Source: a virus
Length of the DNA stretch: 50,563 bases
IMG/VR virus record: IMGVR_UViG_3300031578_000056
Reading direction: 5' to 3' (one strand)
A program made the translations under genes and the position numbers. Positions 16,296-23,545 of the stretch are shown one piece after another. Each line of letters begins with the position of its first letter. Within the stretch, counting starts at the first letter, position 1. The notes beneath the pieces were generated by a model. That model made no database searches and was not told the DNA's origin. It worked only from the letters and a program-made list of their open reading frames with translations.

Positions 16296-19256
16296 TTAAT
16301 CCCCACTAGTATAATATACAAGAGACACAGCACCATTTGGAGTTCTATACGCATAGCCATCTTCATACCCTTGTGCTACTGCATCGTCATTATCGCTATA
16401 AATTGGCATGTTAATATCAGCTTTTGTAAACAATAATTTATCTCCTGCCCTTAATGCAAAAGATACATTGGTCAATACAGGGTCAATTATTGTAATCGGT
16501 AATAATGGTGCTGGGAATATTAGTGTATTAGTAAAATCTAGCACTAACGGTGTTGCATTGTAAAATGTACAGTTATCGAACAAAGTGGTACCTAGATGAC
16601 TTAGCTTCATATATTTATTAGCTGAACTTATGGCACTAGTGGCATTCTCGTTTATAAATGAACATCCAGTAAATTTAAAATCGACATTATGACTATATGT
16701 ACGCAATATATTGAATCCTGTATTAGTCCCTAGATATTTACCGGCCTTAGCAATAAATGTCGAATTCTTGATATTTGCCACTGGTCGATCATCAGATAAT
16801 ACATTACCGAATTGCTCCATCATAAATCTACACCATCCATCTACATACACATTGTCCCACTCAAAGGAAATTGGCATACCATATCGAGGAGAAATAGATC
16901 CTTCGATTATGGAATCTTTCATGTCCATAATTGGTACCACCGTATCCTGAAGATAATCACTATGGACTGTTTCGTAAGCATAACCGCCAAGGATTCTATT
17001 ACCTTCCCACTTACCACCAAATCCAGTAACAGAGGCGATTGCTGCAAAGAAACTTCCTGCTGTTCTCATTGTTACTTTGCAGGATGCTGGATCAGTAACT
17101 AGATTAGAAAGTTTTGTGATATCATTTAACAAGAAGTCATTATTAATCCAATCAGCCCCATTACAACGCTCCGAAACGAAGTACTCAAACATGTTAACAT
17201 CGTAAGTAAATTTATTGTCTTTTACTAATGATTTAACGCGATTTGCTGTACTGGCTTGATCACAAATTATTTTTGTATTGTGAAACTTATTATTTGTAAT
17301 GGTGTTTCCATTTGCTGTAAAAGAAATTTCAGCATTAAGTGTTTTGTTATTATCAAAAGAGTCGTTTCTATCTAGAATAACACGACCATGCTTAATAATA
17401 TTACCTGTTATAATCGTATTTCTAGCAGTCGCAGCACCGATACATGTATCTCCATAACTCCAACCCACCTTGGTATCACAATCGAAAGTACATCCCATTA
17501 TTTTAACATCTTCTGTACCAACTAGGAATATATCACCCCCAGCATTATCTCGGAATGTTAGATTTATAAAATTATAATCACGAGCTGAACGTCTTTGATC
17601 TTCAATATCTATGCCACATCCAGGAGTCCTACCTCCGTTTTCATAGATTTTAGAATTTGCCCAAGTTGTTCGGCATGGGAGATTAGAACCTCCTTGTCTA
17701 CCATTCTTCCAGGAATTTACATTGCTTAAATATAAACCAGATGGATTTAAATCAGCTCGCAATTGTAAATCCATTATAGTTAAATCGTCAGGCATGTCTA
17801 TTTCTACACGCGCTCCTGGATAATCTCCAAAATTGGTAATAGCCGAATAGAAATCTAACCATCCAGTCTTTTCCTGAAAAACACCTTCTGAATTATAATA
17901 AGCAATCCGATATCTAGGATATTTCATTCCAGCCCATCCACCGAAAGAACTTCCAGTTAAGGCAAAGAAATTAATACCACTTAATTCTTTAGCTCTAACG
18001 AATTGAGATTTACCAATATCAATAATGTTATCCGTATAGGCGTACGCAGTATCGGTAGTATCTATTACTCCAAGATCAGAAATTGCACCTTGTATCATTG
18101 TCGCAACTCCTGTTCCAATAGCTGAACCTTTTATGTAATTCGTAAATTGGGTATCCCCGTCCGCATAAATTCCATCACCTTGGAAATCATGAATGTTCAT
18201 ATTTCTAATTTCCCCATTATACGCTGCGGTGGTAATATGAATACCTGCATAAAACTCTTTTAAAGAACCCACATGAGAATCATAATCTCCAATTAATTCA
18301 CCACCTTCAAACTTGTATCTATCTGTATTGTATATCGTAAGTAAAGACCCTGAATCTAAGTCATTTGGGATCATCTGAATCTTAGACCCACCCATGAAAA
18401 CGTCAATGTCATTTACCCCATTACCAAAAACTAAACCTGTAGGTTCATCTCTAATTAAAGTTTGTCGGGCAGGAATATCAACATAATAATGCCCAGGAGT
18501 AAAAACATAACGCCCTGAGACTTGATTTCTAACAAATAAGAAGTTTTTAAGAGCATTATAATTGTCCGTAGTGATTAATCCGTTAGGATTAGCGCCTATA
18601 TTGGTAGTGTATAATGTGTGCGGTGGCAACCAAGACCCTGCTAAAGTGCCTGAAAATGCATTAATTAGAACCTCCATATTATCAGGAATCAATCTTGTAC
18701 TAACACCTGTCAAAGTAAATCCATTTAAATGAATTCTTCCACCAACGGCTTTAAGATCAATTCCTTCTAATAATGTGGCATCACCTGTTAAGGTAATGTC
18801 AGTTTGCAACTCCCACGTTTTACTTGCATTTAAAGCACTAGGGGCAGTGAAATCAGAAGAAGAAGTTGGAACGAATACGCTTGGATTTATACCACCAGCA
18901 GCCGCAATACTATCTGTGTAATCTTTAGATTGTTTTGCTGTTGGAGCTTTATCACTAACTATTCCAGATGAAAATTCTGCATCACTTGTTAATTCAGCCC
19001 CACCCGCAGATGAGGCTTTAAAAAAAAGCGCTAAATAGTCAATAGCGTCTTGAAGACTAGTACATGCTAAATCAGTATCTTTTATGATCTGATTCCAATG
19101 TCCTAGGAATTTATTATAACCTTTAGTGCTGTTTTGAAATCCTAACGTGTCACCTGCGCAATAAAGATCAGTAGCTTGAGGATTTAATGGTACGGTATCT
19201 TTCCCAGACTCTTCGACTAGGATAAGATTGCCTGATTTGTAAACTTTTACTGACAT
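16296..19256 (-). CDS. Large beta-helix protein, probable tailspike/fibre with polysaccharide depolymerase domain
   Basis: 986 aa with repeated beta-helix-like motifs (IHDFQGDGIYADGD, NAGGDIFLVGTEDVKIMGCTF, ITGNIIKHGRVIL, NGNTITNNKFHNT). N-terminal anchor module is shared with 15262..16275. Confidence 0.55.
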   Translation of the reverse strand: MSVKVYKSGNLILVEESGKDTVPLNPQATDLYCAGDTLGFQNSTKGYNKFLGHWNQIIKDTDLACTSLQDAIDYLALFFKASSAGGAELTSDAEFSSGIVSDKAPTAKQSKDYTDSIAAAGGINPSVFVPTSSSDFTAPSALNASKTWELQTDITLTGDATLLEGIDLKAVGGRIHLNGFTLTGVSTRLIPDNMEVLINAFSGTLAGSWLPPHTLYTTNIGANPNGLITTDNYNALKNFLFVRNQVSGRYVFTPGHYYVDIPARQTLIRDEPTGLVFGNGVNDIDVFMGGSKIQMIPNDLDSGSLLTIYNTDRYKFEGGELIGDYDSHVGSLKEFYAGIHITTAAYNGEIRNMNIHDFQGDGIYADGDTQFTNYIKGSAIGTGVATMIQGAISDLGVIDTTDTAYAYTDNIIDIGKSQFVRAKELSGINFFALTGSSFGGWAGMKYPRYRIAYYNSEGVFQEKTGWLDFYSAITNFGDYPGARVEIDMPDDLTIMDLQLRADLNPSGLYLSNVNSWKNGRQGGSNLPCRTTWANSKIYENGGRTPGCGIDIEDQRRSARDYNFINLTFRDNAGGDIFLVGTEDVKIMGCTFDCDTKVGWSYGDTCIGAATARNTIITGNIIKHGRVILDRNDSFDNNKTLNAEISFTANGNTITNNKFHNTKIICDQASTANRVKSLVKDNKFTYDVNMFEYFVSERCNGADWINNDFLLNDITKLSNLVTDPASCKVTMRTAGSFFAAIASVTGFGGKWEGNRILGGYAYETVHSDYLQDTVVPIMDMKDSIIEGSISPRYGMPISFEWDNVYVDGWCRFMMEQFGNVLSDDRPVANIKNSTFIAKAGKYLGTNTGFNILRTYSHNVDFKFTGCSFINENATSAISSANKYMKLSHLGTTLFDNCTFYNATPLVLDFTNTLIFPAPLLPITIIDPVLTNVSFALRAGDKLLFTKADINMPIYSDNDDAVAQGYEDGYAYRTPNGAVSLVYYTSGD

Positions 19257-19299: not shown

Positions 19300-19336
19300 A
19301 AAAAAAAATCCACACCAAATTAATGGGGTGGATTTT
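19300..19336 (-). terminator. Rho-independent terminator of the RNA operon
   Basis: Minus strand AAUCCAC...GUGGAUU hairpin followed by U8-9, then the -7 box TATCTTTG (19291-19298) for the 986-aa gene. Confidence 0.75.
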
Positions 19337-19396
19337 TTAATAATCGGCTCCGTATTGTGGCGGAATTATACCGATTGATTTTGATTTTTCGGTTTG

Positions 19397-19466
19397 TGAT
19401 CTAACGGGATTCGAACCCTAAATACACTGCGCTAGCCTTGTGTGTAGCCTTAACACTTTTAGATCA
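19397..19466 (-). ncRNA. tRNA-shaped element C: acceptor stem and GGGTTCGAATCCC T-loop, no canonical anticodon arm
   Basis: TGATCTA...TAGATCA 7-bp acceptor pairing and a canonical T-loop. The T-stem has only 3 clean bp and the central region folds as TACAC-(14 nt)-GTGTA. Confidence 0.35.
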
Positions 19467-19607
19467 TTTGCAACTACTGTCGAGTTGCCAGACTGAAAAG
19501 ATTGCGTCTTACGCTACCATTTTCAATTGTGTGTTATTGAATTTTATTATTAACTAAAGATCTCATAACATCAACTAACCTATCTTGTCAAAATCCACGT
19601 CACCCCC
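19467..19607 (-). ncRNA. tmRNA-like coding-piece candidate (5' acceptor strand plus D-loop-like segment plus downstream RNA)
   Basis: Starts GGGGGTGACGTGGATTTTGACAAG, which resembles the canonical tmRNA 5' end (E. coli GGGGCTGATTCTGGATTCGAC). The 3' boundary is uncertain. Confidence 0.5.
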
Positions 19608-19675
19608 GTATTGTGCCGACTTTATTTTATCGTGTTCTTCCTTCGGCAAAAACCACGTACCTTTTAATTGTGTTG

Positions 19676-19741
19676 TGGAGGTGGAGGGGATCGAACCCTC
19701 GTCCAAAAATAGTGTTTATGAAATTCAACGAACTTTAATTG
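19676..19741 (-). ncRNA. tmRNA-like acceptor-piece candidate (P2-like strand, GGAC, T-arm, 3' acceptor strand, discriminator A)
   Basis: ...TTTTTGGAC-GAGGG-TTCGATC-CCCTC-CACCTCC-A. CACCTCC pairs with GGGGGTG at 19607-19601, including G3:U70. It lies UPSTREAM of the 5' half. Confidence 0.5.
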
Positions 19742-19813
19742 TGGAGATAGTAGGATTCGAACCTACGCGCTACGGGAGCTACCCTCGCTCTGACCATTCT
19801 GAGCTATATCCCC
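19742..19813 (-). tRNA. tRNA-like gene A with alanine-type acceptor stem (G3:U70); anticodon arm non-canonical, isotype unassigned
   Basis: GGGGATA-TA-GCTC-AGAATGGTCA-GAGC-G-[AGGGTAGCTCCCGTAGCGC]-GTAGG-TTCGAAT-CCTAC-TATCTCC-A. Acceptor, D and T arms are good, but the 19-nt middle cannot form a 5-bp stem with a 7-nt loop. Confidence 0.5.
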
Positions 19814-19870
19814 AAATCCAACCGCAACAACCACATTGCGATTGGTAATATTCTTTTAAACCTTACTCAA

Positions 19871-19878
19871 CAAATATA
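19871..19878 (-). promoter_or_regulatory. -7 box TATATTTG of the RNA operon promoter
   Basis: Minus strand TTG-N22-TATATTTG, about 50 nt upstream of tRNA-like A. Confidence 0.5.
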
Positions 19879-19904
19879 CTAATAATAATTTAATTAATTG
19901 CAAC

Positions 19905-20036
19905 CTAATCCACTAAAATATAAAATCTTCTACCTTTACATTTCGGGCATGCGTGTATTTTATGATTGCCACAATTAAATGGTATTAATTCAGATTGTTC
20001 TAAAATGTGCTTACAGCTTATACATTCGTACTTCAT
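19905..20036 (-). CDS. Zinc-ribbon mini-protein (43 aa)
   Basis: MKYECISCKHILEQSELIPFNCGNHKIHACPKCKGRRFYILVD has CxxC...CxxC (my translation). Confidence 0.45.
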   Translation of the reverse strand: MKYECISCKHILEQSELIPFNCGNHKIHACPKCKGRRFYILVD

Positions 20037-20039
20037 CTT

Positions 20040-20207
20040 TTAAATATTTAAATCATCATTAAACTCTTTTGCGGATCTCTTTAACTCCTCGTGTCCGCAA
20101 CATTCACATTTCATCTTTTCTATTCTTCTTTTGTAAACCCCACCTTTCTTTATTAGGAAAGGCTCCATTGGGTATCTACATTCAGGACATAGTGTTTCTT
20201 TTTTCAT
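20040..20207 (-). CDS. Zinc-ribbon mini-protein (55 aa; shorter start preferred over ORF-track 20279)
   Basis: MKKETLCPECRYPM...KCECCGHEE. The ATG at 20207 forms an ATGA overlap with the stop of 20204..20533. Confidence 0.5.
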   Translation of the reverse strand: MKKETLCPECRYPMEPFLIKKGGVYKRRIEKMKCECCGHEELKRSAKEFNDDLNI

Positions 20208-21330: not shown

Positions 21331-22974
21331 TCACCCAAAAGCACCAGGCGAAGGCCGGTAGGATTTCTTTTGAATTGCTGCGATAAGTCTTTCTTTAGGC
21401 GCAAAAGTTTGAGTTAATGCGTCAGACTCATCTGGAGAACCACCCAGTCTAGACGACAACTCATCCTTTGGCTCTATTATTAATTCACCTGTCTTTCTGT
21501 CGTACATGTATTTAATCTCTGCCAATTGCGCTTTTAGTTCATCTGAGGGCGGTAGCATTAATTTAGCATCGAATTGAGGATTTAAAGCGTCTCTCAAAGC
21601 CCAATGAACGTAAGCTCTCATGTTCTTAAACTTCATTGTTCCGGTAATGTCAGTTAGCCCCTTAGCTCCGTAAGAGTTCTTAAATGAATAAACGTTGTCT
21701 ATTCCAGCCTCTTTACATCCAGAGAAAACACCGCTTCCCTCTCCAATCGTATCAATATTAATAGCTTCGAATAGTTTTGCATCTTTATTGATATGTGCAG
21801 ACGTTTCCATGTGAGCAGTTTCCGGCTTTAATGGTATGATTACTCTTGGATGCGCTACGTAGTCGCCGTATCGGTCTATGAATACGGTTGAATCTCTTCC
21901 TTGACCTGATACATCAACGCCTCTTATCCCTTTTGAGTGTTCTATTCCTTTTTCAGTAGCTTCCAACCACCTATCCTGAGCCGCTTCAATCCAACTGAGC
22001 GGTATTAAATTCTCATCTGAGCTTTCGGGATGTACTGCAAGTATCTTGATTTTACAAACTCTTGATGGCCTATACCATTTACCTTCAAATTCGAAATCAT
22101 GTTTTGATAAATCCTTTTCTGACTCGTTTATTTTAATAGTCCAACCTTTTTTATTCACTCGATCCTTCACCCACGAATAATCTAATTGCCCTGGATATCT
22201 TAATTTTTGATATTCATCAGGAGTGATAATTCCATCATACATTTGTTTACCCAATTTAAAATTATCAGATTCGAACGCCGGTATCCGTTTTGATTTATAC
22301 TGCGGATCCTTCATCGATTCGTAAGCCTCGCCTTGAGAAAAATTTGGATTGTGCAGTAGAACTAATCTTGAATTATTTTGCAAACATCCTTCAATTCCTT
22401 CATAAATCAATGGAGGTAAGCCCGAAGCCTCGGTAGCAACTACCATAATGTTTTCATTGTGGTATCCGGTCCACCTTTCAGTATTGTATTCATCACCCTT
22501 GAATGCTTCGAGTGACCATTTTGCATAATTCCCGAACTTTGGATTTTCTTCCATTCCAGAAGGTATATTGAAATGAACGCCTTTCTGAGTTAATTTAAAA
22601 TCCCATAGTCCGGCCTTTACTAATTTAGGTAAAGCAGATCCGTAAAATTTAGATTTCAATTCTCCTAACATGATAGTATTAACCTGAGCCGCGGACGGAC
22701 CTGTATTAATAACTAAGGCCGTCTGAAGTATTCCGTTCGCATCGAAGTCAGGAGTGAGTAAAAGAAAGCACCATGAAGCAAGCGAACCAAGCCAATCCTT
22801 GCCCATACTTGTGGCTGAACAGAAAGAAGTTCTCTTGTTGTGCTGTATCATATGCAATCCTTCCTGTTGCCATTCGGAAGGGCGTACTTGCATTACATCA
22901 TAGGCAAATCTTACCCAATCGTCCTTCCACGATTGCATTAATTTGCGGTCGCTATCTGTTATTTTTAATCCCAT
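21331..22974 (-). CDS. terL: Terminase large subunit
   Basis: 547 aa with an N-terminal ATPase (SATSMGKD P-loop-like, IMVVATEASG Walker B-like) and a C-terminal nuclease motif (GVDVSGQGRDSTVFI). Confidence 0.85.
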   Translation of the reverse strand: MGLKITDSDRKLMQSWKDDWVRFAYDVMQVRPSEWQQEGLHMIQHNKRTSFCSATSMGKDWLGSLASWCFLLLTPDFDANGILQTALVINTGPSAAQVNTIMLGELKSKFYGSALPKLVKAGLWDFKLTQKGVHFNIPSGMEENPKFGNYAKWSLEAFKGDEYNTERWTGYHNENIMVVATEASGLPPLIYEGIEGCLQNNSRLVLLHNPNFSQGEAYESMKDPQYKSKRIPAFESDNFKLGKQMYDGIITPDEYQKLRYPGQLDYSWVKDRVNKKGWTIKINESEKDLSKHDFEFEGKWYRPSRVCKIKILAVHPESSDENLIPLSWIEAAQDRWLEATEKGIEHSKGIRGVDVSGQGRDSTVFIDRYGDYVAHPRVIIPLKPETAHMETSAHINKDAKLFEAINIDTIGEGSGVFSGCKEAGIDNVYSFKNSYGAKGLTDITGTMKFKNMRAYVHWALRDALNPQFDAKLMLPPSDELKAQLAEIKYMYDRKTGELIIEPKDELSSRLGGSPDESDALTQTFAPKERLIAAIQKKSYRPSPGAFG

Positions 22975-23545
22975 CGTAATCTTTTTTATGCATAAAAATG
23001 AATCCCTTAGTTTTATTTTTAACTCCAGAACATACTTTAGATATATTGTATGCCTTTATATTTAACGCCTCTGAAGCGTCAGCCATAGATCTGTATTCTT
23101 TTACAAACTTAAAGTTTAAATCTAATTGAATAATTGGCTTACAAAACGGATTATCATTTCTATCTATCTTATATCTATAGTTAGAATCTTTAGAGTTTAT
23201 GCCTATTTTATTCTTTATAGCCAATGGGAAGTTTTGATTCTCCATCATAGTACACCATCTTAAATTAGATACGTGGTTGTTTGTTGGATTCCCATCAATA
23301 TGATCTATACATGGCTTATTGTCTGGATTGGGTATAAATGCTAAAGCAACTAATCTGTGCGCTAAAAAAGTCCTGCGCTTTCCATGTTTGCTTAGATTGA
23401 TGTGTGAATATACGTTAGAGTCGCTAAAACTCATTATTATATTCTTCCTCAAACTCCGAACCCTACCAAGATTACTAACCTGATACAATCCCTCATAGCC
23501 CGTAATGTTTTTCCAAATTTCTGTCATAGTTTCGTTTTTTATCAC
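22952..23545 (-). CDS. HNH homing endonuclease (NUMOD4 plus HNH_3)
   Basis: WKNITGYEGLYQVSNLGRVRS (NUMOD4) and CIDHIDGNPTNNHVSNLRW (HNH). Overlaps the terL start by 23 nt. Confidence 0.85.
   Translation of the reverse strand: MIKNETMTEIWKNITGYEGLYQVSNLGRVRSLRKNIIMSFSDSNVYSHINLSKHGKRRTFLAHRLVALAFIPNPDNKPCIDHIDGNPTNNHVSNLRWCTMMENQNFPLAIKNKIGINSKDSNYRYKIDRNDNPFCKPIIQLDLNFKFVKEYRSMADASEALNIKAYNISKVCSGVKNKTKGFIFMHKKDYDGIKNNR

Follow-up and report, generated by a model that had tools for sequence, protein, structure and literature searches.

A Circularly Permuted tmRNA Gene in a Predicted Non-coding Operon of a Probable Bacteroidota Phage

Transfer-messenger RNA (tmRNA) encoded by circularly permuted genes has been described in Alpha- and Betaproteobacteria, in Cyanobacteria and in marine phages, among them Melnitz and the pelagiphages (PMC9004378). 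A 2022 survey of 18,146 phage genomes reported 133 unique tmRNAs, 53 of them two-piece and mostly marine (PMC9004378), and the 2025 tmRNA database contains 79 phage sequences as well as 18 + 23 + 7 permuted genes in Bacteroidota assemblies (PMC11915505); the older subtype models RF01849, RF01850 and RF01851 have meanwhile been merged into RF04321 (PMC11915505). Two sequenced phages, Maribacter phage Panino (PP540027, 27557-27889) and Chryseobacterium phage MA9V-3 (PV245944, 22766-23124), carry genes annotated as transfer-messenger RNA SsrA, and both genes prove in the present analysis to be permuted. Here we describe a related locus in the IMG/VR virus record IMGVR_UViG_3300031578_000056, whose whole analysed length of 50.5 kb we call the window; all features of the locus lie on the minus strand unless stated otherwise. 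We consider it probable that the locus is a phage non-coding operon that carries a circularly permuted tmRNA (ssrA) gene, one belonging to a CCA-less clade of Bacteroidota type.

The gene in the window shares with those of Panino and MA9V-3 the permuted order, the lack of an encoded CCA, the acceptor stem GGGGGTG/CACCTCC, the ATAA leader before the tag, the register of the inter-piece helix P2a, in which one unpaired U stands before GGAC, and (for the window, probably) a Bacteroidota host, which in the two phages belongs to the Flavobacteriia. The tRNA-like core of 34 nucleotides (nt) is identical in MA9V-3 and also in L002, one of the survey loci that we designate by L and a number, and Panino has the same layout of tRNA, 66-nt piece, spacer, 140-nt piece and tRNA. 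The two differ from the window in their Gly-initiated (GGN) tags, GKVMNVSFAPTVRQFA and GNVIDINKYVAKLEVAA, and beyond the core nucleotide similarity is undetectable; the tRNAs that flank the Panino gene are, unlike those of the window, normal (Asp and Thr). Permutation is stated neither in the two GenBank records nor in the tmRNA passages of the Panino paper (PMC11590407), and the tmRNA passages of the literature searched mention neither such permutation nor a Bacteroidota-phage lineage. A preliminary description of the locus had supposed that permuted genes were unknown from Bacteroidota and their phages. This was mistaken, given the two annotated phage genes, the entries in the tmRNA database and at least 72 genes in IMG/VR; the CCA-less permuted type of Bacteroidota phages is already in databases, is common in IMG/VR and is found by standard tools. 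It remains true that the clade is not described as a group in the literature searched. The Panino record also annotates a hypothetical protein of 49 residues antisense to the tmRNA (PP540027 27669-27818, minus strand), and its tmRNA feature overlaps both tRNA features; these are probably artefacts of the loose boundaries that ARAGORN gives to permuted genes.

More distant systems resemble the locus in part. The permuted tmRNAs of Alpha- and Betaproteobacteria, Cyanobacteria and marine phages have in common with it the permutation, the tRNA-like domain, the excision of a spacer (predicted for the window) and a P2 helix that holds the pieces together. The alpha-like phage genes of IMG/VR, by contrast, encode CCA, have AND...ALAA tags and use another P2a register. 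The window's clade is closer in character to one-piece Bacteroidota tmRNA, its pieces are shorter, and it lacks a glutamine riboswitch such as that of Melnitz. One-piece Bacteroidota tmRNAs (Rikenellaceae, Alistipes; 363-412 nt) have, like the window, the 5' end GGGGGTGAC.GGTTTTGACAGCAG and the 3' end CTGTTTGGAC-GAGGGTTCGA..CCCTCCACCTCCA, followed by CAA rather than CCA, and they share Gly-initiated tags with the window's clade, but they are unpermuted and about twice as long, with a pseudoknot-rich body and tags that end in YALAA. Finally, the RNA of mycobacteriophage DS6A, which consists of a tRNA-like domain only, is likewise phage-borne and related to tmRNA and departs from canonical tag function; its coding part is wholly absent, whereas in the window the coding piece is complete and its tag frame is open.

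Anatomy and Covariation of the Permuted Gene

ARAGORN makes a single call in the window, a permuted tmRNA (tmRNA*). With the Rfam model RF04321 (tmRNA_permuted), whose gathering score is 47, the match at 19480-19723 reaches 58.7 bits (E 6.3e-9, calculated over the entire window) and spans model positions 1-213 of 213, and a permissive Rfam scan of the locus adds only RF00023, as a truncated one-piece match to the 3' half. In the gene, the T-arm and 3' acceptor strand (GGAC-GAGGG-TTCGATC-CCCTC-CACCTCC-A, 19704-19676) come first, followed by a 68-nt spacer and then by the 5' acceptor strand, where GGGGGTGACGTGGATTTTGAC starts at 19607. The acceptor strands GGGGGTG and CACCTCC pair at 7 of 7 positions, G3:U70 included, and the discriminator is A. 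The preliminary description had recognized both halves and the gap between them, the seven acceptor pairs with their G:U wobble and the precedence of the 3' half, and it had named ARAGORN and the Rfam tmRNA models as checks; all of this is borne out. Judged from its sequence, the locus holds a genuine circularly permuted (two-piece) tmRNA gene (Table 1).

Three helices between the pieces had also been suggested. AAGATAG/CTATTTT, which is P2a, is confirmed by covariation (see below), and TTATGA/TCATAA is part of an 8-bp helix, TTATGAGA/TTTCATAA (P2b), that is consistent with the Rfam alignment. The third, AATTCAA/TTGAATT, is unsupported, as co-folding prefers CTTTAGTT/AATTAAAG (P2c), a pairing that uses the extreme 5' end of the acceptor piece. 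The GTTGA motif on which the rejected helix drew is conserved throughout the clade, and no conserved partner for it was seen. The stretch of about 40 nt that separates P2a from the leader seems to be paired with the 5' tail of the acceptor piece. The intervening sequence ranges from 41 to 93 nt in relatives and is not conserved in sequence.

Table 1. Features of the locus, 5' to 3' on the minus strand of the window. L248 is an IMG/VR contig whose 547-residue neighbour protein is 87% identical to that of the window.
Feature	Position	Strand	Basis and remarks
Bacteroidota-type promoter	19871-19903	-	Consensus match only; -33 TTG 19903-19901, 22-nt spacer, -7 box TATATTTG 19878-19871
tRNA-like element 1	19742-19813	-	Rfam tRNA 47.4 bits; cloverleaf fold; 3' end abuts acceptor piece; absent from L248
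Acceptor piece, ~66 nt, CCA not encoded	19676-19741	-	RF04321 alignment, covariation; 5' boundary placed from end of tRNA-like element 1
Acceptor piece: P2c strand AATTAAAG	19740-19733	-	
Acceptor piece: GTTGA	19729-19725	-	Conserved
Acceptor piece: P2b strand TTTCATAA	19723-19716	-	
Acceptor piece: P2a strand CTATTTT	19712-19706	-	
Acceptor piece: GGAC	19704-19701	-	
Acceptor piece: T-arm	19700-19684	-	
Acceptor piece: 3' acceptor strand CACCTCC	19683-19677	-	
Acceptor piece: discriminator A	19676	-	
Intervening sequence, 68 nt	19608-19675	-	Between discriminator and G1; predicted to be removed on maturation
Coding piece, ~141 nt	19467-19607	-	RF04321, alignment, co-fold; 3' boundary placed from start of tRNA-like element 2
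Coding piece: 5' acceptor strand GGGGGTG	19607-19601	-	
Coding piece: P2a strand AAGATAG	19586-19580	-	
Coding piece: P2b strand TTATGAGA	19568-19561	-	
Coding piece: P2c strand CTTTAGTT	19559-19552	-	
Coding piece: leader AATAATAAAA	19551-19542	-	
Coding piece: tag frame (predicted) TTC AAT AAC ACA CAA TTG AAA ATG GTA GCG TAA, FNNTQLKMVA-stop	19509-19541	-	Alignment of 12 coding pieces
Coding piece: 3' hairpin GCAACT/AGTTGC	19488-19470	-	
tRNA-like element 2	19396-19466	-	Relaxed ARAGORN call; fold; 5' end abuts coding piece
Conserved hairpin between tRNA-like element 2 and terminator	19342-19376	-	Fold -11.6 kcal/mol, z = -2.65
Intrinsic terminator	19300-19336	-	10-bp stem with one mismatch, then nine U; conserved in L248

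The same permuted order was sought in IMG/VR viral contigs with a pattern consisting of the T-loop, ten free bases, A, 40-70 nt and GGGGNNGA...GAC, which leaves the 3' acceptor strand free. At least 120 loci matched, and ARAGORN called at least 68 tmRNAs in them, nearly all permuted. Among the matches listed, 72 of 135 candidate sites pair at all seven acceptor positions, where we estimate that about 0.6 would do so by chance; the remaining 63 are false positives of the tRNA-array kind. The validated permuted genes, at least 72 in number, show at least nine pair combinations at acceptor positions 5 and 6, and every one of the 72 among the matches listed has G3:U70 and a discriminator A. Of these 72, fifty have an encoded CCA together with alpha-like AND...ALAA tags. 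The CCA-less set, which the window resembles, comprises 21 unique sequences among the matches listed, including two that are false or unrelated (L046 and L092). Overall, at least 20 phage contigs that are unrelated to one another show this permuted architecture.

Covariation was assessed by aligning 18 CCA-less genes, that of the window included, with the spacer excised, and counting pairs of the T-arm, the acceptor stem and P2a. These genes had been preselected for a fully paired acceptor stem and no more than one mismatch in the T-arm; P2a was not a selection criterion. Paired cells make up 91.5% of the total, compared with 73.3% in shuffled alignments (0 of 500 reach the observed value) and at most 56.8% in slid registers, and changes on both sides are seen in 12 pairs. 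Within P2a, six of seven pairs are compensatory. A test of P2a that does not depend on the alignment finds 83% paired versus 62 ± 3% with shuffled partners, and the distal tails form more stable pairings with the coding pieces of their own genes than with those of other genes (-11.1 versus -9.0 kcal/mol, permutation p ~0.0002). The acceptor stem, the T-arm and the inter-piece helix P2a are thus canonical and covary among phage homologues; for the acceptor stem and the P2-like helices the preliminary description had proposed this test.

Simple sequence searches reach less far. Megablast and blastn comparisons of the window's tmRNA with GenBank phages return only the 34-nt core in MA9V-3, and a concatenated query made from the clade yields no match at E 1e-6. 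An exact 23-mer of the tmRNA is present at four viral loci; a 25-mer of the leader is found among viral contigs only in that of L248 and nowhere in metagenomes; and the pattern of the tag end occurs in viral contigs only at L053/L108, with eight chance matches within metagenome coding sequence. Another phage contig with a CCA-less permuted tmRNA (L003:1900-8500) has an adjoining array of 16 tRNA genes, and a tRNA-like element directly upstream of its tmRNA is called by ARAGORN only at a relaxed threshold.

Tag Frame, Flanking Elements and Transcription Unit

Neither the ATAA of the leader nor the closing GCN-stop varies among the 12 aligned coding pieces (the window and 11 relatives). The tag codons of the window occupy 19541-19512, and the stop TAA (19511-19509) lies inside a small hairpin, GCG-UAAGA-CGC. 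From the leader AATAATAAAA onward, the window sequence (TTC...TTG AAA ATG GTA GCG TAA GACGCAA) aligns codon for codon with that of L053, in which GATGATAACA is followed by GGC AAC TGG AAT CAA GAA TTG AAA GCC GCA GCG TAA GACGCAA and whose 3' part is nearly identical to that of the window. The predicted tag is FNNTQLKMVA, and it is homologous to the tags of the relatives. The preliminary description had seen no canonical tag frame and had allowed for a tag-less RNA or a decoy, readings that the aligned frame does not support; its suggestion that the tag is divergent survives in the weaker sense of a UUC resume codon and a Val-Ala end, while the frame itself is present. The two frames that it put forward instead, one corresponding to ARAGORN's tag ANDLKVLRLHTRLAQCI and the other beginning GNSTVV..., were rejected because neither shows homology with the tags of the relatives and both would continue across tRNA-like element 2. 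For annotation, the tag should read FNNTQLKMVA rather than ARAGORN's version, and the appropriate label for the locus is a permuted tmRNA with a tRNA-like element on either side.

Neither of these elements is called by ARAGORN at its default threshold. With relaxed settings they appear as tRNA-???(gc) and tRNA-?(ag), respectively, with 2-nt "anticodons," and neither forms a cloverleaf with a 7-nt anticodon loop. Element 1 has an Ala-like acceptor (G3:U70, A73) and normal D- and T-arms, together with an anticodon arm reduced to a 3-bp stem and a 5-6-nt loop, 3 nt short relative to the Rfam tRNA; it might be charged by AlaRS yet be unable to decode. Element 2 has the acceptor TGATCTA/TAGATCA, a D-arm with GG, the T-arm GGG-TTCGAAT-CCC (GGGTTCGAATCCC) and an aberrant anticodon region.

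The distances at which the elements stand recur in relatives. From the end of element 1 to the T-arm there are 40 nt, and from G1 to the start of element 2 there are 141 nt; the corresponding distances to normal tRNAs are 38 nt (tRNA-Asn) and 139 nt (tRNA-Phe) in L087 and 39 nt (tRNA-Asp) and 140 nt (tRNA-Thr) in Panino, and in L023 a downstream tRNA-like call (tRNA-???) lies at 145 nt. Because the same distances separate the pieces from normal tRNAs in Panino and L087, it seems that tRNA-processing enzymes may cut all four ends, in which case the abutting tRNAs, or their decayed remains, would serve RNase P and RNase Z as handles and so fix the outer ends of the pieces. In other members of the clade, a TAnnTTTG promoter stands at the beginning or a terminator at the end instead.

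The promoter-like site, with its 22-nt spacing and -7 box, and the terminator, a hairpin followed by a U-run, are present where the preliminary description had placed them, and no minus-strand open reading frame (ORF) of 60 residues or more lies in the locus, where the longest is at most 43 residues. The segment between them does contain both tmRNA halves, as had been proposed, but it is not a tmRNA unit alone, since the two tRNA-like elements are also inside it. The promoter and leader are 94% identical to L248 up to 19813. Window-wide, TAnnTTTG is not enriched, yet it is found just upstream of many minus-strand ORF starts; consensus scans of the window for promoters and terminators were uninformative. 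The terminator hairpin folds with -16.5 kcal/mol (z = -5.2; 0 of 200 shuffles fold as well) and was missed by a simple terminator scan because of its one stem mismatch. The stretch around the conserved hairpin upstream of it matches L248 (89% over window 19403-19285). An antisense ORF of 87 residues (19585-19848, plus strand) has no Pfam match and no similarity to the antisense coding sequence annotated in Panino, and it should not be called in annotation.

Two short sequences are repeated within the operon. CACAATAC followed by GG occurs at 19615-19608, before G1 of the tmRNA, and at 19359-19352, before GGAGCCG in the conserved hairpin near the terminator, and CAATTAAA occurs at 19741-19733, after tRNA-like element 1, and at 19675-19660, after the acceptor piece. 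These leaders and trailers may be processing-site contexts or traces of duplication.

Maturation, Function and Rival Explanations

We think that the permuted tmRNA of the window is probably functional, and its parts suggest how it would be made and used. A single transcript would run from the TAnnTTTG promoter to the terminator and be cut at four sites by the tRNA-processing enzymes of the host. First, 3' processing of tRNA-like element 1 would free the 5' end of the ~66-nt acceptor piece. Second, an RNase Z-type enzyme would cut after discriminator A19676, and addition of CCA would then leave an RNA of ~69 nt ending in ...CACCUCCACCA. Third, RNase P would cut before G19607, creating the start of the coding piece (GGGGGUG), and fourth, a cut by RNase P at the 5' end of tRNA-like element 2 would create the end of this ~141-nt piece. 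Held together by the acceptor stem and the P2 stack, the two pieces would be charged by host AlaRS via G3:U70 and A73 and delivered to stalled ribosomes by host SmpB and EF-Tu. Translation would then resume at UUC, adding Ala-FNNTQLKMVA before the UAA stop, and the phage would benefit from accessory ribosome rescue during infection, with a tag of its own.

A number of observations weigh against this proposal. All four cleavage sites are predicted ones. CCA is not encoded, so that maturation needs the CCA-adding enzyme of the host, and no SmpB was found among the window ORFs scanned. A PK1-like pseudoknot between P2 and the tag is not evident, although no pseudoknot-specific search was made. 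Translation would resume at UUC, a codon that is GGN in 10 of 11 relatives and CCA in the other (L026), and the tag ends in Val-Ala rather than Ala-Ala. Both flanking tRNAs are degenerate, the closest relative, L248, is without the cassette, and no close homologue of the tmRNA was found in the viral, metagenome or phage collections.

Some of these features could also be read as signs of a different role, in which the RNA is made and folded but its tag is defective or altered, and in which it acts through its tRNA-like domain, either as a decoy for SmpB, AlaRS or tmRNA or in rescue without proteolysis. One of them is the resume codon, UUC rather than GGN, but L026, of the same clade, also has a resume codon that does not begin with G. 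Likewise, the tag closes with MVA, as against AAA in the closest relative, L053, yet among the other phage tmRNAs that ARAGORN calls there are tags with the ends AVA, LAV or FA. There is precedent for a role of this kind in the DS6A RNA, and a similar molecule strongly inhibits tmRNA in Escherichia coli (PMC11915505, PMC4131195); moreover, a second tRNA-like element with alanine identity adjoins the gene of the window, and PK1 is not evident within the limit noted above. A pure decoy, however, would have no need of a coding piece, and the one found here has an open frame of normal length (10 codons), a conserved leader, a stop within a hairpin and a terminal Ala codon. We regard this explanation as unlikely, although it is the most probable of the alternatives.

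Decay would account for another subset of the same features. That a once-functional tRNA-tmRNA-tRNA module is being lost from the phage lineage would fit the drift of the resume codon and the tag end, the loss of the normal anticodon loop in both flanking tRNAs and the lack of a tmRNA in the close relative L248. Against this, the acceptor stem, T-arm and GGAC are canonical at every position, the 34-nt core is the same as in MA9V-3 and L002, P2a is a perfect 7-bp helix, and the tag frame, promoter and terminator are intact. A decaying remnant is improbable.

Integration commonly takes place at tmRNA genes, and the 3' tRNA-like end of the window is identical to that of many bacterial one-piece genes, so the two halves might be debris of a host ssrA gene brought along from an attachment site by imprecise excision. 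Yet the 79 bacterial genes with the same 3' end have the standard order, whereas the order here is permuted, with a spacer, and this architecture is found with covariation in many unrelated phage contigs, as described above; the locus also has its own promoter and terminator, and no integrase was found among the window ORFs scanned. The chance of such an origin is very slight, and we consider it effectively refuted. Chance juxtaposition of the 3' part of one tRNA with the 5' part of another in a small array, a notion that the other tRNA-like elements of the locus and the 63 false positives among the 135 scan candidates listed might encourage, has next to no probability and is effectively refuted by the covariance-model score and the covariation, the halves pairing at 7 of 7 positions with G3:U70 and bringing with them the GGAC and GAC motifs, a covarying P2a and a homologous tag frame.

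Phage Setting, Dispensability and Possible Origin

The window is a siphovirus-like phage, with ORFs that match portal, tape measure, primase-helicase, terminase small subunit, major head protein and endolysin. The portal relatives among sequenced phages have Bacteroidota hosts only (Cellulophaga, Riemerella, Porphyromonas), and other ORFs match DUF4494, DUF3127 and the Bxa-like ADP-ribosyltransferase family, which are typical of Bacteroidota. The host is probably a member of the Bacteroidota. The 3' tRNA-like end is of no help in diagnosing it, since this sequence is shared by many phyla.

Several neighbouring genes may be recorded here. A small Cys-rich ORF (~45 residues, CxxC...CxxC, zinc-ribbon-like; about 19905-20040, minus strand) ends just upstream of the promoter of the RNA operon, and the stretch that encodes it is 94% identical in nucleotides to L248:2493-2630. 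Immediately downstream of the operon is an ORF of 986 residues (16296-19256, minus strand) with no Pfam domain; among 5.8 billion proteins it has two distant homologues only (41% and 32% identity), and the tmRNA is present in neither of their contigs. An HNH homing-type endonuclease (22952-23545, minus strand) adjoins the 547-residue gene, which is possibly the large terminase, and a second HNH/NUMOD4 match and the Bxa-like ADP-ribosyltransferase family match lie elsewhere in the window.

The 547-residue gene also leads to L248, in which no tmRNA was found. L248 matches the window through the promoter and leader to exactly 19813 and again from 19403 to the terminator, and between these points 409 nt of the window are replaced by ~100 nt. 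Here L248 has an element of ~110 nt (L248:2714-2823), including a closing stem that overlaps the flanking matches, which is the counterpart of window 19466-19396. It is framed by the stem TGATCTA(G)/(C)TAGATCA, as in tRNA-like element 2, the closing stem being one of 8 bp, TGATCTAG/CTAGATCA. Its interior is different and contains a D-arm-like hairpin, two more hairpins and a T-arm-like CAGG-ATCAAAA-CCTG; neither Rfam nor ARAGORN returns a match for it. The element looks like interchangeable RNA cargo within a conserved frame. The cassette of tRNA-like element 1 and tmRNA (~347 nt) is thus an insertion/deletion difference between close relatives, and it is therefore dispensable. The ORF of 986 residues, absent from L248, is a second such difference adjoining the cassette. 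At 13 more distant loci reached through the 547-residue neighbour, ARAGORN finds no tmRNA, and nine of them scanned with Rfam also give none.

The origin of the clade is a further question on which the comparison with one-piece genes bears. The lack of an encoded CCA, the P2a register and the Gly-type tag family seem, indirectly, to point away from the alpha-like subtype. Bacteroidales one-piece genes begin with GGGGGTGACCGGTTTTGACAGCAGG and end with ...CTGTTTGGAC-GAGGGTTCGA...CACCTCCA before CAA, do not encode CCA and have Gly-initiated tags, traits by which the window's clade stands apart from the alpha-like permuted genes of phages; CCA is not encoded in six of the seven Bacteroidota one-piece genes sampled. 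When the variable parts that adjoin the tRNA-like domain are compared, the best match is a Bacteroidota one-piece gene for 14 of 21 CCA-less phage genes and for 6 of 50 CCA-encoding permuted genes among the matches listed (Mann-Whitney p 8.5e-9), the reference set being a small one of 50 genes, 7 of them from Bacteroidota, selected by their shared 3' end. Such traits fit either adaptation to host factors or independent permutation of a Bacteroidota gene. On the second alternative, the window, Panino, MA9V-3 and about 18 IMG/VR contigs would represent a separate two-piece origin from a one-piece Bacteroidota gene, with a small mature RNA (~69 + 141 nt) that has few or no pseudoknots and with outer ends determined either by a promoter and a terminator or by tRNAs that abut the pieces; those of the window would have decayed to anticodon-less processing handles, one of which has alanine identity. 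We hold this view only tentatively, as possible but somewhat doubtful, because the reference set is small and was selected by the shared 3' end.

In general, the locus adds a divergent member to the clade of phage-borne, Bacteroidota-type two-piece tmRNAs, and both the clade and the model of tRNA-punctuated processing merit a short comparative study. From the clade one might learn the lower size limit of a tmRNA that still encodes a tag, and also the way in which the outer ends of two-piece tmRNAs are formed, for which the fixed distances of 38-40 and 139-145 nt to abutting tRNAs provide a processing model. Finally, because the cassette is present in one of two close relatives and absent from the other, nature itself offers a comparison by which the benefit to a phage of its own ribosome-rescue RNA could be judged.

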